Source: a virus
Taxonomy: Duplodnaviria; Caudoviricetes
DNA length: 49,738 nt
Virus record (IMG/VR): IMGVR_UViG_3300023170_004110
Span: 1-49,738 of that record
Reading direction: 5' to 3' (one strand)
Position numbers and translations under genes: made by a program. This document shows positions 29,159 to 49,738 of this stretch, piece after piece; positions within the stretch are counted from its first letter, which is position 1, and every line of letters begins with the position of its first letter. The notes under the pieces were generated by a model, which saw only the letters and a list, made by a program, of their open reading frames with translations, searched no databases and was not told the DNA's origin.

Positions 29159-29177
29159 GTCTTACTTTCCTAATATT

Positions 29178-29327
29178 TTATTTACTTTCGTGTTTAATTC
29201 TAAATTTGCAATCTGACGAATGGTTTTGTATTTGATTATCAATTTCTTTTTCTGATTTACCACAAAATAAACAAACTAAATTTGTATTGTGATCATCAGT
29301 TGGTAATCTTTTTTTTGGGTAATCCAT
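29178..29327 (-). CDS. 49-aa zinc-finger microprotein (not in the ORF track)
   Basis: MDYPKKRLPTDDHNTNLVCLFCGKSEKEIDNQIQNHSSDCKFRIKHESK; TAGGAG RBS; TATAAATA at 29359-29366 on the minus strand. Confidence 0.7.
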   Translation of the reverse strand: MDYPKKRLPTDDHNTNLVCLFCGKSEKEIDNQIQNHSSDCKFRIKHESK

Positions 29328-29365
29328 AAATAAACTCCTAATTAAAATAACTATTAAATATTTAT

Positions 29366-30847
29366 ATGAATACTATAGAAAAAATTATTATTTTAGGTGG
29401 CGGTACAAGTGGTTTTATATCAGCCTTTATCTTAAGGAAAAAACATCCTAATTTAAAAATACAAATTATCAAATCAGAAAAAATTGATACAATAGGCGTA
29501 GGAGAAGGAAGCACTGAAAATTTTACAAAATTCCTTGAATATGTCGATATTGAGTATAAAGATATATTAAAAAATTGTGGTGCAACATTAAAATCCGGTA
29601 TTATGTTTAAGGGCTGGAGCGATAACGATTTTTTACAAAGTATTAGTGACGGTTGGAATATGCAAACAGATTTTTATCCTATTGCATTTGGTAATTTGAT
29701 TGTAAATAAGTCTACAAATGATCTTTTTGTAAGTGAGCATGCTTTGAACAATAAGGTGAATGCGTGGTTTTTGCAAGATAAAAATATTTGTCCTACAGCG
29801 CAATTTCATTTTGATAATTTTAAATTAAATTCTTATTTTGAAAAACTAGCAAGTAAGAGAAATATTAATGTCATTTATACAGAAATAAAAAAAATAAATT
29901 TATCTGCTAATGGTAACATACAAAATTTACAAAGCGAAGATTCTGTATATACAGCTGATTTCTTTATTGATGCATCAGGATTTAGAAAATTTTTAATAAA
30001 GAAGCTAGATGCAAAGTGGAAAAGTTGGAAAAAATATTTTTTCCTAAATTCTGCAATTACATTTCAAACAAAATCTAGTGAAAATATTGATATGTGGACC
30101 ACAGCACAAACCATGGAAAACGGTTGGTTGTTTAAAATTCCTTTAACTGACAGGAACGGAAATGGTTATATTTACGATGATAGATATTGCACAAACACGC
30201 AAGCTGAACAAGAAGTTAGAGAATTTTTAAATCTTGATATTACTGTTGCAAAAGAAATTAAATTTGAACCTGGATATGTCATAAATCCTTGGATTAAGAA
30301 TTGTTGTGCTATAGGTTTGAGTTCTAGTTTTGTAGAACCTTTAGAAGCATCTTCAATTGGTGTAACAATTGAACAATCATTTTTACTTTCTAAATTATTA
30401 GTTAATTATAATGATTATACAATAAAAAAATATAATACAATTAATGAAAAAATCCTTGAAAATGTGAGAGATTTTATTTCCTTGCATTATATAACAAAAA
30501 AAAATAATAGCCAATTTTGGAAGGATATTCAACACAATTTAATTATTTCTGATAAACTTGCTCATTTACTTGAAATTTGGAAAAATAATTTACCAAACAG
30601 ATTTGATTTTTTTGATTATTCGCCCAGTTGCTTATTTAGCGAATTGCATTTTATCCTAATTCTTAACGGATTAAAATTATTTAATGCTGAAAGTATAACT
30701 AGAGAGTATAAGTCAATTGTATCTGCTGTTGATGAAAGGATTGTTTTAGATACATTGGACTTTCAAAAAAATTTACGATGCGACACAATACCACATAGAT
30801 TGTTTTTAGAATTTTTAAAGAATATAAAAAAAGAAAATTATGAATAG
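29366..30847 (+). CDS. flavin-dependent tryptophan halogenase-like protein
   Basis: GGGTSG, IGVGEGS, ATLKSGI (catalytic Lys position), FHFD, FIDASGF, GWLFKIP, FVEPLEASSI. Confidence 0.9.
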   Translation: MNTIEKIIILGGGTSGFISAFILRKKHPNLKIQIIKSEKIDTIGVGEGSTENFTKFLEYVDIEYKDILKNCGATLKSGIMFKGWSDNDFLQSISDGWNMQTDFYPIAFGNLIVNKSTNDLFVSEHALNNKVNAWFLQDKNICPTAQFHFDNFKLNSYFEKLASKRNINVIYTEIKKINLSANGNIQNLQSEDSVYTADFFIDASGFRKFLIKKLDAKWKSWKKYFFLNSAITFQTKSSENIDMWTTAQTMENGWLFKIPLTDRNGNGYIYDDRYCTNTQAEQEVREFLNLDITVAKEIKFEPGYVINPWIKNCCAIGLSSSFVEPLEASSIGVTIEQSFLLSKLLVNYNDYTIKKYNTINEKILENVRDFISLHYITKKNNSQFWKDIQHNLIISDKLAHLLEIWKNNLPNRFDFFDYSPSCLFSELHFILILNGLKLFNAESITREYKSIVSAVDERIVLDTLDFQKNLRCDTIPHRLFLEFLKNIKKENYE

Positions 30848-31733
30848 ACTGTTTACATTTGGCTGTAGTTTCACATTATATAATTGGCCGACTTGGGCAG
30901 ATTTATTTGGGTTAGAATTTCCACAAGCCTACAATTGGGGTTGTCCAGGAATAGGTAATAGAGGTATTCTAGAAAGGCTTTTCGAATGTGATGCTTGTAT
31001 GAATTTTGCTCCTACAGATACAGTTATAATACAATGGACTAGTTATTTACGGCATGATTACATGCGAACAAATACTAACGATAAAGAAAAAAACTCTTCA
31101 TGGAAAAGGATATCTTCATGGAAAACTTGTGGCAGTATTTTTGCCAAAAATAATCAAAATATTTTCGACCGTAATTGGATTAATAAATTTTGGGAAGAAC
31201 GTGCTTATTTTATACATACCCTTAATGCAATTGTAGGAGCAATAGGATTTTTAGACGGTAAAGGTTGTAAGTGGGCAATGACGTCTATGAATGATTTATG
31301 TGCTGTAGGAAATAATATTGAAGATAAAACTTTTGGCGGAGAATATCAAAATTCAAAAAATTTACCAAAATTTTGGGATTTAGATAAAAATTTAGATTTT
31401 TATAGAACAAAAATTTGGGAAGATAATAAGGACAAATGGATATCGCCAATAATAAATGTAAAAGAAGAATGTCCTGAATATAATGCGATATTTAATTTTG
31501 AAAAAAGGACGGAAGGCGCATGGGAAGAAGCTCATCCCTCAGTGATGCAACACGCTATTTGGTTATTAAGTTTAAAAGATTATCTACAATTAGATGTTAA
31601 TTTAACCAAAGAACAAGCTAAAATGGTTAATGAAATAACTAATTTTCAAAATACTGCAAAAGATTATAAAGATTTTGAAGGAAAAATTAATAACACGCTC
31701 TGGGGTAAAACAATAAGAGTTGCAGGTTTATAG
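30840..31733 (+). CDS. SGNH/GDSL-like hypothetical protein
   Basis: FGCSFT, GIGN, IIQWT..R, C-terminal HPS. Confidence 0.55.
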   Translation: MNRLFTFGCSFTLYNWPTWADLFGLEFPQAYNWGCPGIGNRGILERLFECDACMNFAPTDTVIIQWTSYLRHDYMRTNTNDKEKNSSWKRISSWKTCGSIFAKNNQNIFDRNWINKFWEERAYFIHTLNAIVGAIGFLDGKGCKWAMTSMNDLCAVGNNIEDKTFGGEYQNSKNLPKFWDLDKNLDFYRTKIWEDNKDKWISPIINVKEECPEYNAIFNFEKRTEGAWEEAHPSVMQHAIWLLSLKDYLQLDVNLTKEQAKMVNEITNFQNTAKDYKDFEGKINNTLWGKTIRVAGL

Positions 31734-31762
31734 CTTTCTTAATCTGCTTCCTGGGGGACCCA

Positions 31763-32326
31763 TTATGTATTCCATGGCAAAGCATTAGCAAAATCATATA
31801 AGTTATTAACAATTGTTGTTTTATTTTTTATTTGCCTAAAATTGCTTTTTGATAGCATTTTTTCAGTCTCTAATCCTTTACCTGTTTTTACCAAAACTGG
31901 TAGGGCACCTACACGCAGAGCTGCTTTTAAATCACTAATACGATCTCCTACGAATGCACCTCCTTTAAATTTTAAACCACATTCTTGTTCAGCTCTTTGA
32001 AACATACCGATATTGGGCTTCGCATATATATCTTTCTTGAATGATGTAGTGCTGTAATATATTCCGCTTATATTTGTGCATCCAACAGCGCCTAGTTTTT
32101 CTAACAAAATTTGGTGAACATTCTGCACATCTGGTATTGATATTTCATTCGTATGAATACCCGGTTGGTTTGACAAAATTACAACGTTGTAATTTTTATC
32201 TCTAAGCATTTTAATTGCTTCTAAGCTCCCTTCTATAGGATTAACTTCATTAACAAATTTTATAGGCTTGCCAATATCATGTAAGATAGTGCCATCTCTA
32301 TCTAGTCCAATTGTAATATTATTCAT
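31763..32326 (-). CDS. HAD-IIIA phosphatase, GmhB (heptose bisphosphate phosphatase)-like
   Basis: LDRDGT, SNQPG, KPNIGM, VGDRISD, VKTGKG; lacks the CxH/CxC Zn motif. Confidence 0.85.
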   Translation of the reverse strand: MNNITIGLDRDGTILHDIGKPIKFVNEVNPIEGSLEAIKMLRDKNYNVVILSNQPGIHTNEISIPDVQNVHQILLEKLGAVGCTNISGIYYSTTSFKKDIYAKPNIGMFQRAEQECGLKFKGGAFVGDRISDLKAALRVGALPVLVKTGKGLETEKMLSKSNFRQIKNKTTIVNNLYDFANALPWNT

Positions 32327-32910
32327 ATTGCGTCAATATTAAACGATATGGAAATTCTTTCATGTTCTACTTCTTGTTGTTCTACTTTGTGTAACAAATA
32401 ACTAGGAAATATTAAAAGCATTCCAGATGTAGGTTGAATAATGAAATCTGTTGTGTTAAATTCTGTAGGAAATTTTTTTCTGCAATTATACGGCCAACTA
32501 CTTTCTAATACAGTTTTATTTTGAAATATTATTTTTGCATCATTGTTTTTGCAATTTAAGTAATAAACACCACTGTATAGATGGGGTATATGCTGATGTG
32601 GTTCGTGATAACTGTAAATTCTATTAATGTTAAACCAGGATGATGTAATAGATAAATTATCTTGTAACCCAATATCATTATGTAAAGTTGTAGTTTGATC
32701 TAAAATAAATTTTTTGAAATCAATAAAAAGTATTTCTTCTAGTAAGTTTGACCCTCCAAAACTTGTATAACTTCCAACAGGATAGTAATTTGTAAAATTT
32801 TTGTTTTGTTTTTCGTAATCTTTGCAATAATCTATTACTTTTTTTTTATTAATAAAATCAAAGTTGCTCCGCCACGCAGGCGCACCGAATATAGTAAAAA
32901 AATTTAGCAT
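32323..32910 (-). CDS. Fe(II)/2OG oxygenase (TIGR02466-like)
   Basis: SWFN, HxH, SGVYY, IFPSYLLHKV, RISISFN. Confidence 0.85.
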   Translation of the reverse strand: MLNFFTIFGAPAWRSNFDFINKKKVIDYCKDYEKQNKNFTNYYPVGSYTSFGGSNLLEEILFIDFKKFILDQTTTLHNDIGLQDNLSITSSWFNINRIYSYHEPHQHIPHLYSGVYYLNCKNNDAKIIFQNKTVLESSWPYNCRKKFPTEFNTTDFIIQPTSGMLLIFPSYLLHKVEQQEVEHERISISFNIDAI

Positions 32911-33008
32911 TATAACAATCTTCTTTTTGTTAAAAATTTTGATGGCATTATTATACGTTCGTGATATTCTAAAAAATTTTCAAATTGCGTTTTACTATAT
33001 TCTTGCAT
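32910..33008 (-). CDS. 32-aa hypothetical microprotein
   Basis: MQEYSKTQFENFLEYHERIIMPSKFLTKRRLL fills the gap; TAATG overlap with the next start. Confidence 0.4.
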   Translation of the reverse strand: MQEYSKTQFENFLEYHERIIMPSKFLTKRRLL

Positions 33009-33019
33009 TTGATTTTCTT

Positions 33020-33751
33020 TTAAATAAAAAATTGTTGATTTATTCTGTAAATATTTTTTGTAAACATAGTTTCATCTATATAAGCACTATGAAATACATT
33101 TTGTTGATAAATTATCATTCTATTATATTTCATTTCAACAAGGTGAATTTTTTTCCAGTCACCTTGATCATCAATTAGAAATTTAGTTGGTTTAATTTTA
33201 TTTTTTTCATCTACATAATTTATATTTTTATCAGAGATCATTTTGCCTTGAAAAGAATAAAATGCAGTTCCACCTGCACATTCCTCTGCTTTATTTAAAT
33301 AAATTGTAGAAGCAAACGCTCTATAATCAGAGTTATCAATATGCGGAACTCTAGGTGGAAGATTTTCAGATGTCATAACATTTATCATAAATGTTGCCCG
33401 CTGAAAACTAGTTATAATTTGATCATTTTGATTAGCTTTTTCAAATTCAGGAAAGACTACTTCTGGAAATATTTTTTGGATAATTTTGTTATATACTGGT
33501 CCTAATGAATCTAAAATATAAAAAGCATTTATACGTCCGCTATTCTTTCCTGTTGGTAGATCAGAAGTAATTCGGTCGTTTACTGTGGGCGGAATAGTAA
33601 ATGCAAGTTCTCTAACTGCATCAGGATCAACATAAAAATCATCAACAATTCCTATTTTAACAAGTTCGCACGGTGTTTTAATTTCTATTATTTGAATTTT
33701 TAAATCTTGATTAGTTAAAAATATTTTTTTTTCATCAATAAATTTAATCAT
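33020..33751 (-). CDS. Fe(II)/2OG oxygenase-like protein (DUF6445-like)
   Basis: VDDFYVDPD, PHID, IYLN, GGTAFY, YNR, FHS, RINQ. Confidence 0.75.
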   Translation of the reverse strand: MIKFIDEKKIFLTNQDLKIQIIEIKTPCELVKIGIVDDFYVDPDAVRELAFTIPPTVNDRITSDLPTGKNSGRINAFYILDSLGPVYNKIIQKIFPEVVFPEFEKANQNDQIITSFQRATFMINVMTSENLPPRVPHIDNSDYRAFASTIYLNKAEECAGGTAFYSFQGKMISDKNINYVDEKNKIKPTKFLIDDQGDWKKIHLVEMKYNRMIIYQQNVFHSAYIDETMFTKNIYRINQQFFI

Positions 33752-35555
33752 TTTTTATGCAAATTATTTTTTTAAACTCAGGCAAAAATAAGTATTCAAT
33801 ATCACTAGAAAATAAAGTTTCCAGTGCATCTTCTAAAGTTTCTACCAATGGTTCGCCGCCTAAATTAAAACTTGTATTAAATAATATAGGTATATTAGTT
33901 TTTTGATAAAATTCCTTAATTAAGGAATAATATAAGGGGTTTTGTTTTTCTGTAACAGTTTGAATTCTACAAGTGCCGTCAATATGAACTATTGATGGTA
34001 TTTTTTCTATATGTGTATCCTTACATTTAACTGCATACATCATATGAGGACTTTCTTTTAAAGTTCTCATATCAAACCAATCATGAGCATGCTCTGCGAG
34101 CACAGATCCTGCAAATGGTCTAAAATACTCTCTATTCTTTACTAAGTTTACATAGTCCTTGCCATCTTTAAATGTAGGATCAAATAGTATACTTCTATTG
34201 CCTAATGCTCTCGGACCATTTTCTGATCTACCTTGAAATATACTTACGATATTTTTTTCCGTAAGTAAATTTACTACATCTTTATTATCTGCATCAATAA
34301 TAATACCATTAAATTTATCTACAAGATTTGTAATATAATCTAAATTATATTCATATTTGGGACCTAAATATATAGATTCAGCATATGGCCTAATTTTACT
34401 ATCTTGGGTTAATTTATGGTAACAAAGTAGTGCAGCTCCCATAGCTGTTCCTGCATCATTACTTACTGGTTCAACATAAAATTCAATATTATGTTTTTTT
34501 AATTCATCTAAATAAAAATAATTAGCTACACAATTTAATCCGTATCCTCCACTAAAAACAACTTTTTTTATGTTACTTTTTTCAACAGCTTGTAAAATTA
34601 GATTTAGGCAAGCTTGTTGGCTTTCTGTTTGAACTGCATATGCTAAATCTCGCCTATTTTGTAAGTCTGTTACATCTATATTAGGCACAGATTCGTTATA
34701 AAAATCAGGATTATTTAATTCTGCATATCTTCCAATATTAACATCTGCTCCATTTGGATATGTTGGTATGATCAAATTCCTATCCGAAGTAATCCAAGAG
34801 CCATTACCACCATCTGAATAAATTGCTGGAAAATTATTATTCGGGTTGCCATAAGGAAATAATCCCATAGTTTTTCCAGCTTCAATAGGTGCAAATCCAC
34901 AGTATTGTGTTACTGCTTCATATGCTTTTACAATTCCTGCCGAATCGTCAAGAATTAATTCAAATGGATCGTCTTGATTCATATAGTCAGCAACAAAATT
35001 TGGCATCCGAACCCCGCCCCATGGGCCTCTGCCGCCTTGATGTTTGTATATTGTCTTAAAATTATTAGGATATTTACATGTAAAAAAAGTTTCTAATTCC
35101 CAAGTCATTTCCGTTGTACTTCCTATTTGTAACGGAATGTAAGTTCCTGCACCGTCGACAATTACAGCAACTGCTTCATCAAATCCAGATCTATAGAATG
35201 CACAAGCTGCATGCAATTGGTGATGCATATAGCTATAATCTAAAACTTGAGGATGGTTATCATGCCTTTCCTTGTGGCTGATTAGTTTTAACTTCCTAGC
35301 TAAGCCAGTATAAATATCGTCACCACTAAAGTCTATTTTGCCCGCTGTTTCTTTTAGTGGTTGAGTGTGAGCGATAACAAGGTAATCTAATTTATCAGTA
35401 AAATCTAGTATTTTTTTCATAGCAGCAAAAGGACCGCCGTCGTATTTTTGCCGTGATAGCCTTTCTTCTTCAATTGAAAAAATTATTTCGCCATCTCTTA
35501 ATAAGCAAACACCAGCATTATGTCCTCTAGTGATTCCTGCTATCCATCTTGTCAT
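33744..35555 (-). CDS. O-carbamoyltransferase (NodU/CmcH/TobZ family)
   Basis: EEERLSRQK, HHQLHA, DGAG, GKTMGL, SGGYGLNC, DAGTAMGAA, GPRALGNRSI, REYFRPFA, HIDGTCRIQTV, NTSFN. Confidence 0.95.
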   Translation of the reverse strand: MTRWIAGITRGHNAGVCLLRDGEIIFSIEEERLSRQKYDGGPFAAMKKILDFTDKLDYLVIAHTQPLKETAGKIDFSGDDIYTGLARKLKLISHKERHDNHPQVLDYSYMHHQLHAACAFYRSGFDEAVAVIVDGAGTYIPLQIGSTTEMTWELETFFTCKYPNNFKTIYKHQGGRGPWGGVRMPNFVADYMNQDDPFELILDDSAGIVKAYEAVTQYCGFAPIEAGKTMGLFPYGNPNNNFPAIYSDGGNGSWITSDRNLIIPTYPNGADVNIGRYAELNNPDFYNESVPNIDVTDLQNRRDLAYAVQTESQQACLNLILQAVEKSNIKKVVFSGGYGLNCVANYFYLDELKKHNIEFYVEPVSNDAGTAMGAALLCYHKLTQDSKIRPYAESIYLGPKYEYNLDYITNLVDKFNGIIIDADNKDVVNLLTEKNIVSIFQGRSENGPRALGNRSILFDPTFKDGKDYVNLVKNREYFRPFAGSVLAEHAHDWFDMRTLKESPHMMYAVKCKDTHIEKIPSIVHIDGTCRIQTVTEKQNPLYYSLIKEFYQKTNIPILFNTSFNLGGEPLVETLEDALETLFSSDIEYLFLPEFKKIICIKND

Positions 35556-37329: not shown

Positions 37330-38178
37330 TTATAAAAAAGTAATTTTTACTATACCTGAGCCACCTTGCCCAGATCCACCAGCACAAGCTTTTGCCCAGT
37401 TATTACAATAGTTAGATACACCAGACATACCTCCACCCGAAGGCCAATTAACATAACAACCACAAGAACACCAAGCATCACTTGCACTAGTACCTTGCCA
37501 TAAACCTATAACAGGCGGTTGTCCAGTAAAACTGGTAGTCCTATAGCAATGACACGCACCGTGACCAAGTTTAGCACCAACTGTGCCCATTATACCTAAA
37601 TCTGCACCAAATGATCCACAAATATTACAATTTGCACAGCCACTTGTATGATGCCTAGGACCCCATGCATCTCCATTACACATCCATCCGCCACAACCAC
37701 CTACTACACAAAAATTAGATAAATTGTGACCTGTAACAAAAGATCTACAACCCATACCTGCACTACAAGTATGGCTTTTTGCACATGGCCAACTGCCTCC
37801 TGCACAAATAGTGTACTGGCATCCAGGTGCAGTTGCTATTGTTTTGATTGCATAGTTGCCTCCTGCACCTCCAATACTGAAGCTACAGCAATTATAACAG
37901 GTGTGTCCTGCTCCACCACCTCCACCTGACCAAATCTCAAAAGTAACTTGTGAAACTTTATCAGGTACAGTCCACAAACAACATTTTCCATTTGCTTGTT
38001 CGCAGCAACTGCTGCGATTTGCACAGTTTCTACAATCATGTGCTCTTGCGTTAAATATCCATTGAACACCATATCCGTTACCTGCTCCTGCGGCTATGTG
38101 GTCGCACGTTACAATACTACAGGTCGATGCGTCTATATTTTCTTCTGTAATTCTTTTGTAATTCGCATAATTTGCCAT
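37330..38178 (-). CDS. Cys/Gly-rich fibre-like protein, paralogue 1
   Basis: WTVP..VTFEIWSGGGGG, GGSGIVKITF; 29 Cys in 282 aa. Confidence 0.8.
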   Translation of the reverse strand: MANYANYKRITEENIDASTCSIVTCDHIAAGAGNGYGVQWIFNARAHDCRNCANRSSCCEQANGKCCLWTVPDKVSQVTFEIWSGGGGGAGHTCYNCCSFSIGGAGGNYAIKTIATAPGCQYTICAGGSWPCAKSHTCSAGMGCRSFVTGHNLSNFCVVGGCGGWMCNGDAWGPRHHTSGCANCNICGSFGADLGIMGTVGAKLGHGACHCYRTTSFTGQPPVIGLWQGTSASDAWCSCGCYVNWPSGGGMSGVSNYCNNWAKACAGGSGQGGSGIVKITFL

Positions 38179-39665
38179 TAAATTAACCTATTAATTAAAA
38201 GTAACTTTTACTATACCTGAGCCACCTTGCCCAGATCCACCAGCACAAGCTTTTGCCCAGTTATTACAATAGCTAGATACACCAGACATACCTCCACCCG
38301 AAGGCCAATTAACATAACAACCACAAGAACACCATGCTTCAGTTGCATTTATTGCTTGTACATTTCCTATAAAAGGAGCTGTTCCTGACCAGGTTCCGTC
38401 AGCACCGCTACAATGACAACCCAAATGACCTATTTTCATTCCCATAGATCCACTAATACCAAAATCTGCACCGAACGAACTGCATATGTTACAATTTGCA
38501 CAGCCACTTGTATGATGCCTAGGACCCCATGCATCTCCATTACACATCCATCCGCCACAACCACCCACTACACAAAAATTAGATAAATTGTATCCAGTCA
38601 CATATGACCTACATCCCATACCTGCACCACAAGTATGGCTTTTTGCACATGGCCAACTGCCTCCTGCACAAATAGTGTACTGGCATCCAGGTGCAGTTGA
38701 TATAGTTTTTGTTGCATAATTACCACCTGCACCTCCAATACTGAAGCTACAGCAATTATAACAGGTGTGTCCTGCTCCACCACCTCCACCTGACCAAATC
38801 TCAAAAGTTACCTTAGAAACTTTATCAGGTACAGTCCACAAACAACATTTTCCATTTGCTTGTTCGCAGCAACTGCTGCGATTTGCACAATTTCTACAAA
38901 TAAATCCTCTGGTATTATAGATAAAAAAACTACTTAGTTTCGGTCTTGCGCCATTTGCAATAGCTTGTTGAGATATTATGTTATCATTTAAGTTTTCTGC
39001 GCTAATTTTTTTATAGCTACTGTAGGTTGCCATTGATTTCCTTAATAATATGTAACTTTTACTATACCTGAGCCACCCTGACCAGATCCACCAGCACAAG
39101 CTTTTGCCCAGGTACAACAGTAACTAGATACACCAGATACACCTCCACCTGCAGGCCAATTAACATAACAACCACAAGAACACCATGCTTCAGTAGCTGA
39201 TGCTGATTGCATGAGTCCTATATATGGTGCTGATCCTGTAAAACTCGTACTTCCATTACACCTACACATTGATTGTCCTGTTTTAAAACCAGTAGTGCCA
39301 CTAATACCAAAATCTGCACCGAACGAACTGCATATGTTACAATTAGCACAACCGTTATTAAAATGCCGACCATTGCAACAAAGCCATGCCTCTCCATTAC
39401 ACATCCATCCGCCACAACCACCTGTGGTACAGAAATTAGATAAATTGTATCCAGTCACATATGACCTACATCCCATACCTGCACTACAAGTATGGCTTTT
39501 TGCACATGGCCAACTGCCTCCTGCACAAATAGTGTACTGGCATCCAGGACAAGTCCTTATAGTTTTTATTGCATAATTACCACCTGCACCTCCAATACTG
39601 AAGCTACAGCAATTATAACAGGTGTGTCCTGCTCCACCACCTCCACCTGACCAAATCTCAAAAGT
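37862..39665. repeat. dispersed identical 83-bp block in three paralogues (37862-37944, 38726-38808, 39583-39665), plus other shared blocks
   Basis: Base-by-base comparison of cctgcacctccaatactg...caaatctcaaaagt. Confidence 0.95.
38191..39033 (-). CDS. Cys/Gly-rich fibre-like protein, paralogue 2 (start revised, MATYSSYKK)
   Basis: TAAGGA RBS before ATG 39033; N-terminus aligns with the paralogues. Confidence 0.8.
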   Translation of the reverse strand: MATYSSYKKISAENLNDNIISQQAIANGARPKLSSFFIYNTRGFICRNCANRSSCCEQANGKCCLWTVPDKVSKVTFEIWSGGGGGAGHTCYNCCSFSIGGAGGNYATKTISTAPGCQYTICAGGSWPCAKSHTCGAGMGCRSYVTGYNLSNFCVVGGCGGWMCNGDAWGPRHHTSGCANCNICSSFGADFGISGSMGMKIGHLGCHCSGADGTWSGTAPFIGNVQAINATEAWCSCGCYVNWPSGGGMSGVSSYCNNWAKACAGGSGQGGSGIVKVTFN

Positions 39666-39890
39666 AACACAAGATGTATATTCTGGTACCGTCCACAAAC
39701 AACATTTTCCATTTGCTTGTTCGCAGCAACTGCCCCGATTTGCACAATGATGACATGCATGCGCCCTAGCGTTATAAATCCAAAGAACAGCAGAATTTTT
39801 TCCTGCTCCTAATTCTATTTTATCACTAGTAATTGAGTTATCTAAAAATTGATCAGATAATATTTTTTTATAACTACCGTAATTTGCCAT
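39042..39890 (-). CDS. Cys/Gly-rich fibre-like protein, paralogue 3 (start revised, MANYGSYKK)
   Basis: TAATG overlap with the upstream gene; aligns with the paralogues. Confidence 0.8.
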   Translation of the reverse strand: MANYGSYKKILSDQFLDNSITSDKIELGAGKNSAVLWIYNARAHACHHCANRGSCCEQANGKCCLWTVPEYTSCVTFEIWSGGGGGAGHTCYNCCSFSIGGAGGNYAIKTIRTCPGCQYTICAGGSWPCAKSHTCSAGMGCRSYVTGYNLSNFCTTGGCGGWMCNGEAWLCCNGRHFNNGCANCNICSSFGADFGISGTTGFKTGQSMCRCNGSTSFTGSAPYIGLMQSASATEAWCSCGCYVNWPAGGGVSGVSSYCCTWAKACAGGSGQGGSGIVKVTYY

Positions 39891-40525
39891 TAGACTGTAA
39901 TTATCCTCCAACCGTAAGTAGTATTACTAAAAACTAATTCAAAAGCTGCATTTACAGTTGTAACTGTCATATCTGCTGCATCGCCCATTATTAGGCCTCC
40001 ATTCCTTGCAATTGTTAATGCTGCTGTATCAAAATTTCCAGCAACATCAAAAAATCTAATTGTATCTCCTAATGCAGGCGAACTTGGAAGTGTAGCAATT
40101 ATTGGGGCAGTAGTAGTATCTATAAAATAAGCTTTCCATAGTTCTGCATTAAAGCTTGCAATTTCGATAGAGTAAGTGTATGCATGGTATTGCCATGATA
40201 AAGTTCCTGCTGCATCAGTTGTCAAAGCTTGTCCTGCTCTAGCACCATCACTAGATGGTAAAGTGTACGTTACACTCGTATCTACACTAGCAGGAGCTTT
40301 AAATCCTTGATATGCGCCTGCTGCATCAGCAAATCTTAATTCATTATTATCTGTAAATTCAGTTGTTGTTAGAACTGCAATATTACCTGCAGGATCACCT
40401 ATTTCAAGACCGTTGTCGTAAAAAGATAGATTTGCTGGACTTGATTGAGTAGTAATATTTCTTTCATGGAATGTTAATCCTCCTAAACCGGTAGGAAAAG
40501 TTCCACTTGTAATATATCTTGCCAT
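39890..40525 (-). CDS. virion structural / fibre-associated protein
   Basis: YTLPSSDG..GQALTTDAAGTLSW and YFIDTT..TLPSSPALGD..GWRI fibre modules. Confidence 0.65.
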   Translation of the reverse strand: MARYITSGTFPTGLGGLTFHERNITTQSSPANLSFYDNGLEIGDPAGNIAVLTTTEFTDNNELRFADAAGAYQGFKAPASVDTSVTYTLPSSDGARAGQALTTDAAGTLSWQYHAYTYSIEIASFNAELWKAYFIDTTTAPIIATLPSSPALGDTIRFFDVAGNFDTAALTIARNGGLIMGDAADMTVTTVNAAFELVFSNTTYGWRIITV

Positions 40526-40881: not shown

Positions 40882-43800
40882 TTATCTAAAAAACAAACTA
40901 TATGCAAGCGGATAACCTAATACACCGCCTCTAAATTCTGTCACTGCATTAATGTTTATTGTTGTACCTGTTACACTAGTTATGACATTAGTACCAATAA
41001 AGACATCACCTGCTGTTATTGTATTTACATTTAAGGAGCCACCACCACCACCAATTTGTGCTTCTATATATGCTTTTACTGCTCTTTGTGTAGGTACAAC
41101 TGTATCTGAGTTTGCACTCATAAATGGATCTGTAGAAAATTCATTAATACTTGCCGAATTTCCTCCTAGCGTAACCTCTCCAAGTGTTAGTTCTTGCAAT
41201 CCTGCAATATTGAATGCATCTGCATTTAAAGTTGCAATACCAGTTGATTGTTCTACACTAAATAAACCACCTACTCTAAAATTTCCGTCTTGATCAGTTG
41301 CAGTATAAAATACCCTACCGCCATTTGATTCAACTGTTTCGTGTGTTTGATCTGGATCAACTAATGGTAAACCTGGATAATTTGTTGATTCAAAACCTCC
41401 TGTACCGATATCTAAGAAATCATGTCCTGTTAATCTAACCTGTGAATATTTTATTCGCATTGTTACTAGTGTATCATTTTCAGGTGATTCACTTACTTCT
41501 AATGAAGGAGATAAGTTTAAAAATCCTGAATAGCTACCATCAGTATCTCCTAATAAAGATACAGTATTAACAAGTTTATAAACAGCATTTGGTAAATGAT
41601 CAAATACTATATTAGATCCAGGAACTGGTAAAGTGCTTAATCTCCTGACTGCAACATAATTTCCATTTTGATAAAAGTCAGCATAGCCGTCTGAAAAATT
41701 AGGTGCAACATCTGCAGAAGCAGATAAGTAATTATTACCTCCATCTATTATTGTTGGATTTGCAAGGGCACCATTGCCTGTTCTTACTGCTACTTCAACA
41801 TCATAGACATTATTTGGATCTACGATAGTTATAGTAGGCGCACCATCTATATAACCACTTCCAGGTTCTACTAATCTAATTTCATATATTTTTTCAGATG
41901 CTACACTTGCTCTACCAAATGCTTGCGTTCCTGCATATATTTTTGAAATTAAAGTTGTACTTCCACTTCCTTTTGCGATCCAATAATGAGATTGATCAGG
42001 ATTACCAAAGCCAATAGATTCAAATCCATGGCTATCTATCGCAGGATTACTATCCACTCCTTGGACTGTCCAATTAACAGCATCTTCTGTAATAAGAATA
42101 GCATTAATTTCTGTAGATGTTGCTACATTTTCACTTGCAACAGCTACAAATAAACCTTGACTATATTTAACTTGTGTTATGTCTGCAACTGTTGACCCGT
42201 CAATCGATGGTATGTCTGATTCTACCCACGTCTCTCCCCTATCTAAACTGAATGCAGCTTTGTTTGATCCGGAAGACACAGCTAAAAATCTATTTTTACC
42301 AAAACACATACTACTCCAAGTATAAGTTCCAGGTAATACAGTTGTATACCATAAACCAGGATTTTGGTATTCAGCATAAACAGCATCAGTAGATCCAGGA
42401 AGAATTGCAGCAAGTCTTTCTGCACCAAAAGTTAGTCCAATGAATCCTGTGCTTGGTAGAACAGTAGCATACTGTATCCAGTTAGCTCCTCCATCGTTAG
42501 ATGCAAATACATGTCGAGAATTTTCAAAAATTAAAAAGAAATTGTTTAATCCATATACTAAGGATGGTTTACTATTGTATGGTCCTCCTGGTAAAGATGT
42601 TACATTCCATGTAATATTATCATTAGAATAATATACTTGATTAGTTGCTGAACTTTGGGTAACAATGACTGTAGAACTTTGTTTTAGTGTAGTAGATCCG
42701 TCACTTATAAAACCATTTGCTATTGCTACTGGACCAGTTGATGTACCACCAAGAGCTGTTGTTGTCCATGTTTCTCCGTCTAAACTTTCTAAAATACTTG
42801 TACTAGCATTTTGTGTCATTATCCAACTGCCACTCAATCCTAATCCTGATTGATCAAAATGCGTAATTGCTCCGGTAGTGGAATTTACACTTGTAATAGT
42901 AAGTGTTAAATCATTTTTAGGAGATGCTCCTCCTAGTGTTGTTCCTAAAATTTGGATAGTATCGTTTTTAGAAAAATTTGTTCCTCCGTCTGCAATAGAA
43001 ACTGTATATTTGCTACCATTCCTTGTAACATCAAATGTACATCCAAGTCCTGCTTTGCTCGTTATCGTTCCAGTTACACTATTATAAATTAAAGCTGTTT
43101 TACAAAACTGTATATCTGAACTTGTAACTGCTACATTTGTTTCATGCGAGTATGAATAAAAAGGCGGAGCAGAAAATGTTACATGTGGTTCTATTTGATA
43201 AACTGATGTAGCATTAGTAGCTACAATAGGTGTTCCTGGCACCAAATGCTCATAGCCAGGTGTTCCGTCATTTTTTTCTACTGCAGCAAGTTTAGCACCG
43301 GAATTGTAAGATGTAATTGTAGCATATTGCCCTACGCCTACGCCTCCTATAATAACAATTCTCATTCCAGGATAAGCACTATCTGGATTACCATCTGTTG
43401 CAGCAAGAGTTATACTTGTTAATGTTCCTGTTTGAGCAGTATTTGATTCTAGAGTATATTTTGTACCACCTAGTTCGCTACCTTCTACAGTAGGATCTAA
43501 AATTCTAACTCTATTTACAGCAGCATCTCTAAATTCGTCAACTTCTACAACAGCACCCGATCCTGATCCAAATACATCAATTTGTGCTTCTGTATAATCA
43601 TTACCTGCATGATTGAATTCTAAGTTTATAATTTTATCACCATCTACAGGAACTTCGCCTATTGCTGCATTAAATTGTAAAATATTATCAACTATAGCAG
43701 TTACAGGAGTTTCAGTTATATCTACACCTTCAGCAACAGATCCAAACTCACCGTACGAATTGTTACCATTTGTTGCCCTTATTTTTCCGCCACCTTCTGC

Positions 43801-46800
43801 TAAGTAACCAATATGGGCATAGTACGTAAATACTGAAACCAGTTCAGCTCTACCATTGTTTGTGATCCAGGCACCGATTCCGTCACTAATAACTTGTGTA
43901 AAATCGTTAGAAACTATTGAATCGTTTCCTCCGTTGTGTAAAGCACCATCTATCTTTTGACCAACAGCTCCTCTACCAAATGTTGTAACCCCTTGAACAT
44001 AAGGAGATCTTTCAGTAATCCACACTCGTTCGTCATCTGGTCCCCAACCAGGATCTAATGATGCATAGGCACCAGCAGTAGGTCTACTGGTTCCATATTC
44101 ATTTACTGGAGATAGGTCTCCATTTAACCCCTTAACTGTTTGCAATCTTAAGCCTGTACCATTCCTTAAATAATACATATCTTCTTCTTGCGACCCTATG
44201 ACAGCATTAAGATAATATCTAGCGGCTAATTTTGTTTTGTAATTTGCAGCTTGCTCAAAACTGAAACTGTAAGTTAATAACAAAGTATCTAAAGAATAAG
44301 ATCTTCTATATTGTTTAGGATATTGGAGATCCCATTTCATAGCATCGACAATTGTTCTTATATCTCTTCTACAAAGTGTGCTATTAAATATGTATTCTTT
44401 TTCTATATTAATATTGTCTGCAACAATTACATCAGGCAAACTTGCTGCAGTTGCTCCTATTGTTGAGCTTACTGTAAAGGTTGTACTACTTAAAATTTCT
44501 TTTACGTAGACAGTTTGGTTTAATCCTATTGTTGTAAGGTCTGTTGTTTCGCTTGTAAAAATTATTGGCATATTTAAGCTTAGCCAATTTGTATTTGTTA
44601 CAGATAATATGCTACTTGTTATAGTTATGTTCGTATCTTTAAAATAATTATTTACATATGCTACTGCTTCTTCTACAATTAATTCTTTGTTTAATTCTAA
44701 TAATTTAATAGCTCCGTAAGTATCTGGATTATCTACTGAAGCATTTTTAGCTTCGTTAGTAGCTGCAAATAATATGTCGTTTACAAGTTCAAAAGTATTA
44801 TCAAGTTGTAAAACTGAACTTGCATTTGATACAAATGTTTTTGCTAAATTTCTCGCATAATAATTTGCTGCTATTGTAGCATCTTTTTGGTTTCCATAAA
44901 CTTTTGCAGACGGTTGACGTAAATAGCTATAAGCTGTAATTATACTCATACCATTTGAGCCTGTGCACCAATCATAGCTTGCTGCTTTCATTATCATCTC
45001 TAAATCTCTAGAGCATTTTTCGTGATCAAAGTCAAAGCCACTGTATGTTGTAGTTATAAATTGTAGAGTATCATTTGTAATTGTAGTTGATTCCGTTACA
45101 ATAGATGCGGCAAGAGTTTGCGTCTCTGCACTTGTCCAAGTAATATCAGGCGTAACTTCTGCTGCAAGTGTAGTAATATCATTTGCTGTTAGCACATCAG
45201 TTAAAATGACTGCTAAATCATCCATTTTATCGCCTTCGACACTTGTGCCCGGAGAACCTGTAGTAGATTGTCCGCCAAATGTTTCTAAGATTACACTCTG
45301 ACAAACATTACCTAAGTATGTGTACATAGATACACCGATACTTCTTTGATTAGCATCTGTATAAACACAAGCTCCTGATATATTATTAAATAATGCTCTT
45401 GCTACATTTCTTGTTGCTATGTTGCATCCGTCGCCTCCAACTGATGTATCATAATTTACATCATAAGTGAATGCGTCTAAAGCTCTACCTATATCATCTT
45501 GACATTTAGTTTGTTGAGCAGGCGTTAATCCGTTCCAGAATGTTGAATAAGTTGTTTCTATATAAGTTCTTACTGCGCTAATTATAAATGCACGATTTAA
45601 AATTAATAAATTTTTAGCGTTTGCTCGTGCAGCAATAACACCAGGCTCCGATAAAGATATTGCATCTGCTGAAGTATCACCATTTATGAATATGTCTAAT
45701 AATTCGTTGTAACTTGCATTTGCTAAATTAAGTAAAGTTGTATTAGATGCTAAGATTACTGCAATTTTATCTCTTATAAACTCTATAGAGCCTATTTCTG
45801 CCGACGATTGTTCAGTTTTTACTCTTGATGCTTGTGCTCTATTATAAGCTAAGCCACCTTGAATACCCCAAAAATTAGATCCTAGAACTGCATCATATCT
45901 TCCACCTTCGATTAAATATCCAATGTCTCTGCGACAATAGTTTCCTTTATATGTAAAATCTCCAAAATGGGTTATAATAAAATCAATAGTTTTTTCTTGT
46001 ATACCAGTTATTTCTGCATCTAAATCTGTAACATCAGATTGTAATTGTGCTGCTGCACCTGTAATTGTTGGATAGGCTAATATCGGTGTGTTATCTACAT
46101 TATCTATTATTGTTGTAATATCATTCATAAGGTTTAGAATTACATTAGATGTTGTAGAATTACCGGAATTCGGACCTAATAACTGTTGCTGGTCGGTGCC
46201 AGTATAATATGCAGGAGAAACTGTATTGTTTGTAGATAAAGTTTGTAAAATATTGCTTAAATAATTATAAGCATCAATTGTTGCAGTTTTTTCTAAGGTA
46301 TTTATTGTGAAGTTACCTGTTCTACCTGCATAATATGCTAATCCAGCAGTTATAGATGCCCAATTGCCTTCATATGTTAAGTCAAATGCAATCGCATCTA
46401 ATATGTAACCAATATCTTGTTTACATTTAGTTCGAGAATAGCGTAAATTTGGAAATTCGGTGTTTATGTAAGCAGAAATTTCTTCTTTTATCCAATCTTT
46501 ATTCAGTAGTATATTATCTCGTGCATATCCAAACTGAGGTGTTGTTAGATCATATGCAGGTGTATATATAGTTTCTAATTTTGTACCAAGCCCATGATCG
46601 ACTAATCTTTTTGTAATTCGGGCAAGTTGAGTTGCTGTAGCAGCTTCAGATAAACCGCCAGTAGGCCATTCTGTGTATTGCGATTCGTTATTACCTGCAG
46701 TTTTACTAATTAATTGTCCTGTTACAATGTTTCCTATAACATCTTGTAATCTAGCATAAGCTTCGTACGTATATTTTACATCTCTTTTTGGTATTAACTT

Positions 46801-48891
46801 TGCTTTATCTGTCCTTGGAGAAACTGTTACAGATCTTAATTCGTCTCCCATTACACAACATCTAGCAGGCACGATTATAGGTAAAACTTCTTCGTAGCTT
46901 CCAGTTGATATTCTAATGAGGGTATTTGGCTCAATTCTTGTAGGTATTGTGTTTTCTGTGCCATCTGTTATAGCATCTGTAAGCTGCTTCATTAGATTTG
47001 TTATAGTAGATATAACATTTTCAGCTTCAATTGCTGAATTAAAATATTGATCTACAATTGCTGTCGAATTATCGCTGTCAAGATCTTGATAAGTAAATAT
47101 TGCATTCTGATTTAGAATGTCTTCCATCATTTCTAATGCATAATTTAAGCTTGCTACTGTCTCTGCTGGTTGCTCGTATAGAAAAGTATTTGTTGCTCTT
47201 TCTAAATAACTTAAAGCAGCTTCTCTAATTTTCACATTTCCGCCATGTGTTAGATCATAAATTATTGCATCTACAATGTATCCAATATCTCTTTCACAGT
47301 AGCCTCTATCATAATCAAATGATGTAGTAAATGGTGCAATATTATTAGCAATTTGATAATCTGTCCATTCTACTGTTTCTCGTTGAATAAAGACTCTGTT
47401 TAATTCTAATAATATTCTAGCATTTGGGTTTTTTGCTCCTTTTTCTACTTGCTCGCATGCATATCTAATACTTGCCCATGTTGATTCTATTGAACCACCT
47501 CTTACTGGATATGGTAAATCAATGCCTGTAGACGACACGTAGTAAACATCAGGTGCATTGCCTACAAATGTCCATTCTGGTATACCTGCTGGACTCACAC
47601 TTAAAACTTGCCCATCTGTTCCAATTGGTAATCTAGTAGGTCCAGCTCCACCATAATAAACAATATCACCTTTAGTTGTAAGTACATCGGTTTCTGTACC
47701 TACAACTAAAATATTCCAATAAACTCCTGTAATATCTTGATCTGGTCGTGAACTACCTGCACCACCTCCAGGATCTACAAGAGTTTCTGTTGAAAAATCA
47801 TCTCCTTCTGAGATATGTGAATTAATACAAACGTATGACGAGCTGCCGTACCTTACTACATCTCCTTCTACATAATATCTATCATCTTCCCAAACTCCTC
47901 GCCATTCGAATCCTGGTGATAATAAAGTCCAATAATCTTCCCAATTTACTGTTCTTCCAGGTTCATATCCTAAATTGTCAACTGTTGCAATGTAGTTATA
48001 TCCTCCTACAGATGCAATTTCTCCCACTAAATATTCTTGATTAGAGGAATCTTCTCCCCATTCTCCTTTAAATACTAGGCCTTTTGAAAAAATTTGCCAA
48101 TCTAATATAGATGCAGTTGGTTTTACATTAGAGTTTTGTCTTACTGCAATATATTGATATCCACCCCAAATTACAATGTCTCCTGGTTGGTATAGTGTGG
48201 TATAAACCCATTCATCCTCAAATTTTATACCTTCTACAAAACTATCCCAATTTAAAATATCTACATCAAATGTAGATGACGTGTGGAATGCAGTACAAAT
48301 ATAAAGTCCTGCACCATATTTCACAATATCATTTACTTTATATCTAAATGATGTAATCCAATCATTTTTATATTCTAATCCTTGTGCGAATAATTGCCAT
48401 TTATTAGCGTCTAATTCTAAACCATTAATTAAACTATCTGAAGAAGTATGTGCTGTTATACAAATATATGTATTACCACCATATTTTACTAAATCATTAG
48501 CAAAATAATCTGTAGAAATAGTCCATGTATTTTTCCATGTTAAGCCTGTTGCAAATAAATCCCATTTTGCTGCATCGTCTGTAAAATTTACTGCAGATGT
48601 ATGTTCTGAAGTTGCTATATACAAATTAGATTGATATTTAACAATATCGTTTAACTTATATCCTGTTGCAGTTTGCCAATCTCCTTTCCAAGATTGACCA
48701 TCACTCATTACATTCCATTTAGCCGGAGATATGTTAAAATCTGTAGCAAAATTAGATGCACTTACATGTCCTTGAACACATATGTAAATGCGATTGCCAT
48801 CTTGTACAACATCATCTTTATAATATTGTGTATTTTGTGTCCAGCTGTTTTTCCAAACAAATTTAATTCTTCCTAGTTTAAATTCTGCCAT
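40882..48891 (-). CDS. 2669-aa multidomain tail/baseplate appendage protein
   Basis: N-terminal W..Y..DIV.Y..Y.C..H repeats, split beta-helix, six C-x-x-D helical repeats, Asp-box repeats, C-terminal GHDFLDIGTG..DQDGNFR domain; GGAG RBS and AATAAATA upstream. Confidence 0.8.
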   Translation of the reverse strand: MAEFKLGRIKFVWKNSWTQNTQYYKDDVVQDGNRIYICVQGHVSASNFATDFNISPAKWNVMSDGQSWKGDWQTATGYKLNDIVKYQSNLYIATSEHTSAVNFTDDAAKWDLFATGLTWKNTWTISTDYFANDLVKYGGNTYICITAHTSSDSLINGLELDANKWQLFAQGLEYKNDWITSFRYKVNDIVKYGAGLYICTAFHTSSTFDVDILNWDSFVEGIKFEDEWVYTTLYQPGDIVIWGGYQYIAVRQNSNVKPTASILDWQIFSKGLVFKGEWGEDSSNQEYLVGEIASVGGYNYIATVDNLGYEPGRTVNWEDYWTLLSPGFEWRGVWEDDRYYVEGDVVRYGSSSYVCINSHISEGDDFSTETLVDPGGGAGSSRPDQDITGVYWNILVVGTETDVLTTKGDIVYYGGAGPTRLPIGTDGQVLSVSPAGIPEWTFVGNAPDVYYVSSTGIDLPYPVRGGSIESTWASIRYACEQVEKGAKNPNARILLELNRVFIQRETVEWTDYQIANNIAPFTTSFDYDRGYCERDIGYIVDAIIYDLTHGGNVKIREAALSYLERATNTFLYEQPAETVASLNYALEMMEDILNQNAIFTYQDLDSDNSTAIVDQYFNSAIEAENVISTITNLMKQLTDAITDGTENTIPTRIEPNTLIRISTGSYEEVLPIIVPARCCVMGDELRSVTVSPRTDKAKLIPKRDVKYTYEAYARLQDVIGNIVTGQLISKTAGNNESQYTEWPTGGLSEAATATQLARITKRLVDHGLGTKLETIYTPAYDLTTPQFGYARDNILLNKDWIKEEISAYINTEFPNLRYSRTKCKQDIGYILDAIAFDLTYEGNWASITAGLAYYAGRTGNFTINTLEKTATIDAYNYLSNILQTLSTNNTVSPAYYTGTDQQQLLGPNSGNSTTSNVILNLMNDITTIIDNVDNTPILAYPTITGAAAQLQSDVTDLDAEITGIQEKTIDFIITHFGDFTYKGNYCRRDIGYLIEGGRYDAVLGSNFWGIQGGLAYNRAQASRVKTEQSSAEIGSIEFIRDKIAVILASNTTLLNLANASYNELLDIFINGDTSADAISLSEPGVIAARANAKNLLILNRAFIISAVRTYIETTYSTFWNGLTPAQQTKCQDDIGRALDAFTYDVNYDTSVGGDGCNIATRNVARALFNNISGACVYTDANQRSIGVSMYTYLGNVCQSVILETFGGQSTTGSPGTSVEGDKMDDLAVILTDVLTANDITTLAAEVTPDITWTSAETQTLAASIVTESTTITNDTLQFITTTYSGFDFDHEKCSRDLEMIMKAASYDWCTGSNGMSIITAYSYLRQPSAKVYGNQKDATIAANYYARNLAKTFVSNASSVLQLDNTFELVNDILFAATNEAKNASVDNPDTYGAIKLLELNKELIVEEAVAYVNNYFKDTNITITSSILSVTNTNWLSLNMPIIFTSETTDLTTIGLNQTVYVKEILSSTTFTVSSTIGATAASLPDVIVADNINIEKEYIFNSTLCRRDIRTIVDAMKWDLQYPKQYRRSYSLDTLLLTYSFSFEQAANYKTKLAARYYLNAVIGSQEEDMYYLRNGTGLRLQTVKGLNGDLSPVNEYGTSRPTAGAYASLDPGWGPDDERVWITERSPYVQGVTTFGRGAVGQKIDGALHNGGNDSIVSNDFTQVISDGIGAWITNNGRAELVSVFTYYAHIGYLAEGGGKIRATNGNNSYGEFGSVAEGVDITETPVTAIVDNILQFNAAIGEVPVDGDKIINLEFNHAGNDYTEAQIDVFGSGSGAVVEVDEFRDAAVNRVRILDPTVEGSELGGTKYTLESNTAQTGTLTSITLAATDGNPDSAYPGMRIVIIGGVGVGQYATITSYNSGAKLAAVEKNDGTPGYEHLVPGTPIVATNATSVYQIEPHVTFSAPPFYSYSHETNVAVTSSDIQFCKTALIYNSVTGTITSKAGLGCTFDVTRNGSKYTVSIADGGTNFSKNDTIQILGTTLGGASPKNDLTLTITSVNSTTGAITHFDQSGLGLSGSWIMTQNASTSILESLDGETWTTTALGGTSTGPVAIANGFISDGSTTLKQSSTVIVTQSSATNQVYYSNDNITWNVTSLPGGPYNSKPSLVYGLNNFFLIFENSRHVFASNDGGANWIQYATVLPSTGFIGLTFGAERLAAILPGSTDAVYAEYQNPGLWYTTVLPGTYTWSSMCFGKNRFLAVSSGSNKAAFSLDRGETWVESDIPSIDGSTVADITQVKYSQGLFVAVASENVATSTEINAILITEDAVNWTVQGVDSNPAIDSHGFESIGFGNPDQSHYWIAKGSGSTTLISKIYAGTQAFGRASVASEKIYEIRLVEPGSGYIDGAPTITIVDPNNVYDVEVAVRTGNGALANPTIIDGGNNYLSASADVAPNFSDGYADFYQNGNYVAVRRLSTLPVPGSNIVFDHLPNAVYKLVNTVSLLGDTDGSYSGFLNLSPSLEVSESPENDTLVTMRIKYSQVRLTGHDFLDIGTGGFESTNYPGLPLVDPDQTHETVESNGGRVFYTATDQDGNFRVGGLFSVEQSTGIATLNADAFNIAGLQELTLGEVTLGGNSASINEFSTDPFMSANSDTVVPTQRAVKAYIEAQIGGGGGSLNVNTITAGDVFIGTNVITSVTGTTININAVTEFRGGVLGYPLAYSLFFR

Positions 48892-48940: not shown

Positions 48941-49738
48941 TTATCCAATTGTTGAATCAATTGTGCGAAGGAAATATGCTTGAGCAAGCATATGTCCAGC
49001 TATTCCTGTGTTAATATTTCCTGCGAAATTAACTTTTTTAGGAAATAATATTTTGAAGCCTACAGCAGTATGTGCAATAATATTGTTTTCTGTACCAACT
49101 TTAATCAATCCTGCAGTTATATCATTCGTTTCTATCTCAGATCCACCTTCGGTTAATCTGTTAGCTAAAAATGTTGTAATTGCCCTTTGTGTTGGAATAA
49201 TATTATTTGAGTCTTCAGTAAATATAGGGTCTCTTGAAAATTCTCTAACAACTGTTCCTGTTCCGCCTAATCTTACTCCTCCTAAGCGTAATTCTGATAA
49301 TCCATCTAAATTAAAGAAATCGGCGCTTATAGTTACAACTCCTGTTGCTTGCTCTACTGAAAATAGTTCTCCACCTCTAAAATTTCCATCCTGGTCTGTT
49401 GATGTATAAAAAACTCTTCCTCCGTTAGTTTCAAATACTTCGTTCGCAGGGATAATTTCAAAAAATTCGCCATCTGAATATAAATTTGGATAATTTGTAT
49501 CTACAAAATTACCTGTTCCTATGTCTAAGAAATCGTGTCCTGTTATCCTGCATTGACTGTACTTTTCTCTAATTACTACATCAGTTCCGTGTTGCAAATT
49601 ATCTGTGTTTTGTATAAATGGCGATGTCCTAAATAATGCACGGAATTTACCATTACCGTCACTTCCTAAAGCTTGAACTGTTACAAGAATATATATTTTT
49701 TGGACGTCTTCTCCTAGCTCTTCGTCATAAATTCCATC
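48941..49738 (-). CDS. C-terminus of a paralogous large virion protein (partial, begins beyond the right edge)
   Basis: Frame open to 49738; KYSQCRITGHDFLDIGTG, GGRVFYTSTDQDGNFR, PTQRA motifs shared with the 2669-aa protein. Confidence 0.85.
   Translation of the reverse strand, partial: DGIYDEELGEDVQKIYILVTVQALGSDGNGKFRALFRTSPFIQNTDNLQHGTDVVIREKYSQCRITGHDFLDIGTGNFVDTNYPNLYSDGEFFEIIPANEVFETNGGRVFYTSTDQDGNFRGGELFSVEQATGVVTISADFFNLDGLSELRLGGVRLGGTGTVVREFSRDPIFTEDSNNIIPTQRAITTFLANRLTEGGSEIETNDITAGLIKVGTENNIIAHTAVGFKILFPKKVNFAGNINTGIAGHMLAQAYFLRTIDSTIG

Follow-up and report, generated by a model that had tools for sequence, protein, structure and literature searches.

The 49,738-base virus contig IMGVR_UViG_3300023170_004110, which is the entire record and is called the window below, carries an open reading frame (ORF) for a 2669-amino-acid (aa) protein, P0001, containing six repeats predicted to be globin-type domains of the phycobiliprotein fold. 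Each repeat probably binds a bilin covalently at a conserved cysteine. Covalent binding is favoured because a bilin-globin fold and an attachment cysteine with its helper residues are found together with bilin-making enzymes in the clade of the window phage, whose host is unlikely to supply bilins. The 2669-aa protein is likely a tail fibre and a component of the virion, as judged from its PHROGs annotation (tail fibre families phrog_9851, phrog_4527 and phrog_5342, with a best E of 5.6e-191 for phrog_9851) and from its gene context, a T4-like structural module with genes for terminase, sheath, tube and neck proteins.

A preliminary description of the window had placed six cysteine motifs at the codons listed in Table 1, had reported spacings of 163, 144 and 163 aa between repeats 2 to 5 and had remarked that two repeats lack the arginine, all of which was recovered. 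The motif CxRD is complete in four of the six repeats and is replaced by CxQD in repeat 2 (CKQD) and CxDD in repeat 4 (CQDD). The helix A..[LI]..N+..I said to precede four of the repeats lies directly before repeats 1, 2 and 4; for repeat 6 it is found about 85 aa further upstream, beyond a beta insertion. The pattern C..D.{10}D, picked after the motifs had been seen, occurs six times in the protein, and in 2000 shuffled versions it was absent from 1849, present once in 149 and twice in 2. With a profile built from them, the six repeats reach scores of 38-128 bits, and the same profile detects 1504 repeats in 121 proteins.

The fold was analyzed on repeat 2, modelled with 112 repeats as alignment. 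The predicted model consists of six helices (pLDDT 93.7, pTM 0.88) and, upon Foldseek search against the PDB, all 32 listed matches were phycobiliproteins or a fluorescent protein derived from them, with TM scores of 0.56-0.68 at a probability of 1.00. Realignment with VIA gave Z-scores of 14.0-15.9 over the 50 listed matches, with 121-140 residues aligned at an rmsd of 2.1-3.4. The aligned part of beta chains spans residues ~27-177 and, because 49 of the 50 listed structural alignments begin between chain residues 19 and 33, the modelled repeats are read as lacking the N-terminal X and Y helices. As helical folds can attain a VIA Z of 13 by chance, evidence from sequence is needed beside these scores. 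When repeat profiles were compared with 177,635 PDB sequences, phycocyanin alpha ranked first (20 of 21 and 15 of 17 matches, best E 6.5e-4) and the repeat cysteine was aligned with the cysteine of its CARD motif. The PF00502 label is present on 20 of the 120 listed homologues, and 13 of 14 rescanned homologues, 12 of them chosen for that label, passed the PF00502 cut-off on summed repeat scores. Single-sequence searches of PDB sequences with repeats 2 and 3 returned no match, and the ESM Atlas returned only two unnamed clusters (0.76). Combined, the structural scores and the PF00502 homology in relatives uphold the phycobiliprotein-like globin fold proposed in the preliminary description.

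Phycobiliproteins (CpcA, CpcB, CpeB, Apc; PF00502) have the globin-type fold that is predicted for the repeats and carry CxRD at alpha84/beta82, CpcA being the best sequence match. Unlike them, the repeats are arranged in tandem inside a 2669-aa phage fibre, have neither X/Y helices nor a second conserved cysteine, and are 9-17% identical to them in structural alignments. At position +9 from the cysteine, where CpcA has an arginine, the repeats have an aspartate (82%), and a second aspartate is present at +14 (99%). The X/Y helices and the +9 arginine build the alpha-beta interface of phycobiliproteins. Moreover, the repeats are located in a phage structural module instead of an antenna, and neither a CpeT nor a CpeS lyase was found in five clade contigs including a complete one, CpcE/F-type lyases not having been searched for. 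Without these helices and without an antenna context, the repeats do not qualify as light-harvesting subunits; by its sequence, their site resembles those of both phycobiliproteins and BBAGs.

The BBAGs and the photoglobins are bilin-type globins outside the phycobilisome that are tied to heme oxygenase and reductase genes and are loaded without lyases; the following relies on the accessible part of Rockwell et al. 2023 (PMC10151467). There, CXRD is the bilin attachment motif, and BBAG-1 and BBAG-3, which carry it, bind bilins in the absence of lyases. Photoglobins carry CXQD, to which CKQD of window repeat 2 is similar. Compared by description only, BBAGs are bacterial globins clustered with V4R and Fe-S or B12-binding proteins, whereas the phage domains recur within one structural protein whose gene is distant from those of the enzymes.

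Conservation of the site was measured on the 1477 repeats that cover the cysteine column, reduced to 571 at 60% identity. The cysteine is retained in 543 of these (95%), the arginine in 91%, the aspartate in 97% and the whole CxRD in 517, against a mean column identity of ~22%, figures that are biased upward by a profile seeded on cysteine-bearing repeats. The next most common cysteine column is occupied in only 37 of 571 repeats. A disulphide role was rejected for want of a second conserved cysteine; a disulphide-bonded or a non-conserved cysteine were two of the outcomes that the preliminary description had named as contrary to its proposal. Other columns are equally conserved (Asp+14, 99%; Tyr+30, 97%) and repeat copies without the cysteine exist in the gene upstream of the fibre in contig L001. 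Both facts would fit domains that descend from bilin-binding globins but whose present use is limited to that of rigid helical modules of the fibre, with CxRD as a helix-capping or packing motif. A copy number ranging from few to 37, the nested, permuted and split forms, which suggest modular structural use, and the rigidity of the model of aa 446-1640 (1195 aa; pLDDT 87.9, pTM 0.82) point the same way. Packing hardly explains, however, why a partnerless cysteine should be kept in 95% of diverged repeats, with arginine and aspartate in register, in an extracellular protein as poor in cysteine as this one (20 in 2669 aa), nor why a non-cyanophage clade retains a bilin pathway of its own; we consider a purely structural role unlikely.

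That pathway was examined in the clade to which the window phage belongs. Among isolates, its terminase is closest to that of PA5oct-like phages, then to those of Phosso and Atu_ph07 (Table 1). On this sequence, the phage is a PA5oct/Atu_ph07-like jumbo phage outside the cyanophage lineages and, since these are its nearest relatives, its host would be non-cyanobacterial, probably proteobacterial. The four related jumbo phage isolates that were searched contain no repeats, no reductase and no CpeT. A phage-like contig of the metagenome-assembled genome (MAG) G036 carries the gene order clpS-hemO-reductase, hemO encoding a heme oxygenase, and its reductase used as a query retrieved 80 viral loci; of the 37 contigs of at least 40 kb that were searched, 20 also hold repeats. 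One of these, G037 (357,559 bases, rated complete), encodes hemO, the reductase and nine repeat matches in three proteins; its terminase and scaffold domain are 78% and 67% identical to those of the window. G038 is similar, with the hemO-reductase pair and repeats. The clade reductase is 55% identical to the reductase of pelagiphage Mosig and appears to be PcyA/PcyX-like, and in almost every case its gene comes directly after hemO. Most of the repeat proteins close to the pair are paralogous fibres with 43-46% identity in the scaffold. The co-occurrence with bilin genes anticipated in the preliminary description was therefore found in the clade of the window (G037, G038 and 18 more contigs), without adjacency, and was not found in the window itself or in 35 partial contigs.

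To sample the clade with a neutral marker, a neighbouring membrane gene was used, of which the best 80 of 557 loci, biased toward kin of G037, were taken. The hemO-reductase pair is present in 33 of 48 evaluable loci. Among marker contigs of at least 60 kb, repeats were detected in all 10 with the pair and in neither of the two without it; this contrast is only suggestive, as both pair-less contigs also lack the fibre scaffold and missing DNA may explain the absence of repeats.

In G037, the pair is part of a conserved run (L413:7469-10696) composed of guaC-like, hsp20-like, clpS, hemO and bilin reductase genes; the genes that follow the reductase we take, from their appearance, to resemble those for the curli assembly proteins CsgF/CsgG and FecR. 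The bacterial MAG G036 includes eight contigs (C50, C124, C126, C237, C300, C480, C493 and C532) that are jumbo-phage-like, with repeat fibres and the hemO-reductase pair, and that are probably mis-binned.

The lack of CpeT and CpeS in the five clade contigs leaves room for a pocket that binds a tetrapyrrole or metal for another purpose (biliverdin or heme held non-covalently, a part in iron handling, redox buffering), or for a cysteine acting as a cross-linking reactive thiol. BBAG-2 globins bind only biliverdin (accessible part of PMC10151467), and iron supply is discussed as a role of phage heme oxygenase in the portion of PMC11480375 available. Such uses are quite improbable given that the site equals the covalent bilin motif residue for residue and that, in this clade, a reductase so regularly follows the heme oxygenase.

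Several observations weigh against covalent bilin binding. At the level of the fold, Foldseek E-values for the repeat 2 model were 0.014 or worse, the window fibre has no PF00502 match at E<=0.01, and only 12 of 112 single repeats, window repeat 1 among them, match PF00502 at E<=1. The arginine is missing from window repeats 2 and 4. At the level of the genomes, no bilin gene was found in the 49.7 kb of the window, nor did 35 partial contigs from close relatives (32 + 3; 11-53% complete) yield one, an absence that would be explained by the position of the pair in G037, ~240 kb (contig coordinates) from the orthologous fibre gene. The pair is missing from 15 of the 48 evaluable clade loci, and the co-occurrence of repeats and reductase is confounded by kinship. 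Outside the clade, Mosig encodes hemO and a reductase ~6 kb from its orthologous fibre gene, which has no repeats, and 80 pelagiphage-type reductase loci (678 kb) contained repeats in none and the fibre in 20. Four cyanophages, P-SSM2, S-SSM7, S-PRM1 and P-SSM4, resemble Mosig in carrying a bilin reductase without any repeat that passes the cut-off. Among 17 cyanophages drawn from the match lists, 11 have repeats, namely 4 of the 8 that carry a reductase and 7 of the 9 that do not. Because Mosig, these four cyanophages and the pelagiphage-type loci have a reductase but no repeats, phage-made bilins cannot in general have the repeats as their acceptor; as a general rule, the acceptor role proposed in the preliminary description is not supported.

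A link between cpeT and repeats was considered in the same 17 cyanophages: repeats occur in 6 of 7 with cpeT and in 5 of 10 without, which is too weak to call. In S-CAM4 (L007:11466-12280), the repeat fibre gene is preceded by cpeT at a distance of 290 bases, and two tRNA genes occupy the interval. In Mosig, hemO and the reductase (L095:19723-20959) lie within the structural gene region and adjoin neck genes; a weak repeat match at the start of Mosig_00091 (E 0.003) was set aside as chance.

If bilins are bound as proposed, phage enzymes would convert host heme to biliverdin and subsequently to phycocyanobilin or phycoerythrobilin during infection. The repeat domains would then load the bilin without a lyase, by analogy with CXRD-bearing BBAGs, and their arginine and aspartate would hold the pigment. 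Once loaded, the domains would be grouped rigidly at the side of the fibre scaffold, and the outcome would be a pigmented phage particle.

For such a particle, the function that we tentatively rank first is a responsiveness of the attachment apparatus to light, with illumination favouring adsorption. The available part of Liu et al. (PMC6628666) indicates that P-HM2 fails to adsorb in the dark and that P-SSM2 adsorbs in the dark, and cites light-dependent, photosynthesis-independent adsorption for S-PM2; it ascribes light-dependent cyanophage adsorption to light-sensitive receptors or tail fibres that are left unidentified. Four repeat matches were found in P-HM2, 10 in S-PM2 and none in P-SSM2. 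The correlation between repeats and light-dependent adsorption rests on three phages and, according to the same part of that paper, light-dependent adsorption has not been reported for phages of heterotrophs, two points that count against a light response. So does the behaviour of BBAGs: those assayed for photoactivity were inactive, and their fluorescence was weak (PMC10151467, in its accessible part). The second candidate, shielding of the particle against light-driven oxidation, fits the high copy numbers of the repeats. A wider picture can be drawn, in which widespread aquatic jumbo phages of non-cyanobacterial hosts produce bilin through hemO and PcyA/PcyX and attach it to fibre arrays, the pigmented virion senses light and gates attachment, and the same domains explain the light-dependent adsorption of S-PM2 and P-HM2; taken as a whole, we regard it as speculative and doubtful.

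The repeat family is large, with 1410 clusters at 50% identity (full scan, E up to 0.001) and up to 37 matched stretches per protein. Repeats are present in 38 of 50,697 phage records, 37 of which are cyanophages, where they are found in fibre and baseplate proteins (among them S-PM2 p091, the S-CAM4 short tail fibre and P-HM2 gp7) that databases name only as tail or structural proteins. These belong to the same family as the window repeats and differ in their setting: the hosts of cyanophages make bilins themselves and cpeT is frequent among these phages, whereas the window lineage has hemO and the PcyA/PcyX-like reductase. Stand-alone forms of 75-301 aa were not found among 7716 candidates in a word-limited search, which is no proof of their absence. 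Given this distribution over many cyanophages, the repeats could be used for receptor binding or for mimicry, in contact with phycobilisome-like or other surface proteins of the host and whether pigmented or not. Phycobilisomes are, however, intracellular, the terminase groups the window phage with proteobacterial jumbo phages outside the cyanophage lineages, and the repeats lack the X/Y helices and have Asp in place of the CpcA Arg at +9. The host mimicry suggested in the preliminary description is accordingly a poor fit, and such contacts are very improbable.

In the available part of PMC11480375, the purpose of hemO/pcyX in non-cyanobacterial phages is termed enigmatic, and BBAG-like partners are suggested as a possibility with no phage partner named there. 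The repeats would provide a candidate phage-encoded acceptor in the same genomes as these genes of unexplained purpose. They are also a concrete candidate for light-dependent cyanophage adsorption, for which cultured phages with and without the repeats exist. Were covalent binding true, the 1410 clusters would add a new branch of considerable size to the bilin-binding globins and could supply small biliproteins that load themselves, and a virion that is pigmented and senses light would be something new in kind. No report of phycobiliprotein-like domains in phage proteins was found in the literature searched, which did not cover subscription papers, and the repeats would thus represent a known fold in an unreported setting. 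New here are the link between the repeats and the hemO-reductase pair (with no CpeT/CpeS) in the non-cyanophage clade of the window, an apparently permuted sixth and a split first domain, and the counter-examples.

The architecture of the fibre was compared with that of the Mosig tail fibre Mosig_00063 (1245 aa), which has the N-terminal repeats, three scaffold pieces and the C-terminus in common with the window fibre at 28-50% identity, contains no globin repeats and has different inserts at the same places. As the Mosig fibre has the same pieces without them, the globin repeats are read, from the sequences, as insertions between pieces of a conserved scaffold. The scaffold domain, which shows short strands in the 1195-aa model, is likely beta-helix-like; Foldseek of this model returned low-probability helical noise only, without confirmation of that fold. 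Repeat 6 covers the first half of the repeat profile only and is interrupted by an 80-aa beta insert. The segment aa 704-768 matches the second half of the profile (E 3e-5, compared to 0.08 and 1.2 for controls; E<0.01 in 37 of 59 aligned relatives) and is likely to provide the missing G/H helices of repeat 6. These two half matches suggest a circular permutation of domain 6, which would close a loop containing repeats 2-5. Of 73 loci from relatives, 21 have the fibre gene divided by a clean break immediately ahead of the last helix of repeat 1 and 51 have it fused, the one further locus flagged as split being an N gap and seven incomplete loci being excluded. In the split loci (L013:7118-7121, L014:7172 and 19 more), two coupled genes are found, the first ending Gly-rich and the second starting with the last helix of repeat 1, so that one globin domain would be assembled from two chains.

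Table 1. Coordinates of the fibre gene, its domains and the terminase gene in the window.
Feature	Position	Strand	Basis
Giant tail-fibre-type protein, 2669 aa (P0001)	40882..48891	-	ORF call; PHROGs phrog_9851, 4527, 5342
N-terminal region with CBM5/12-like repeats, aa 1-445; also in repeat-free Mosig fibre	47557..48891	-	Pfam PF02839, 4 stretches; BLAST 32% to Mosig_00063
Repeat 1, ~aa 482-643, CERD, Cys532 at 47296-47298	46963..47448	-	Profile; PF00502 match at E<=1
Two helices, ~aa 704-768, matching C-terminal half of repeat	46588..46782	-	Profile positions 88-125, E 3e-5; helices in model
Repeat 2, aa 778-932, CKQD, Cys823 at 46423-46425; domain folded singly	46096..46560	-	Profile; structure prediction
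Repeat 3, aa 941-1078, CRRD, Cys986 at 45934-45936	45658..46071	-	Profile; model
Repeat 4, aa 1082-1240, CQDD, Cys1130 at 45502-45504; three additional Cys (1156, 1175, 1197)	45172..45648	-	Profile; model
Repeat 5, aa 1248-1387, CSRD, Cys1293 at 45013-45015	44731..45150	-	Profile; model
Repeat 6 front half, ~aa 1388-1565: entry helices, 80-aa beta insertion, CRRD, Cys1507 at 44371-44373	44197..44730	-	Profile positions 7-39 and 39-96; secondary structure
Conserved scaffold domain, aa 1570-1760; further pieces ~aa 446-480, 655-700	43612..44184	-	45% to Mosig fibre; short strands in model
Terminase large subunit, used for phage placement	7009..8589	-	54% PA5oct, 49% Phosso and Atu_ph07; 78% to G037

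A scan of 185,579 prokaryote genomes for the scaffold domain yielded four loci in two MAGs, which resemble mis-binned phage contigs and were rejected as host evidence. A search with P0013 as query retrieved no viral contig. The ORF upstream of the fibre gene in L001 (1838 aa frame) is a fibre paralogue with one degenerate repeat that lacks the cysteine, and the end of the corresponding gene is likely present at 48941-49597 of the window. The sheath gene of the window (19444-22726, minus strand) is divided into two overlapping ORFs (21083-22726 and 19444-21117) that match consecutive parts of phrog_10581; one frameshift near 21150, possibly introduced in assembly, would account for this arrangement. 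Amid the structural genes, the interval 27074-35555 contains genes for tryptophan halogenase-like, 2OG-Fe(II) oxygenase, carbamoyltransferase, cysteine dioxygenase-like and HAD proteins, and three phrog_4205 paralogues are located at 37330-39911. A fibre gene identical to that of the window is carried by the 83.7 kb contig L182.

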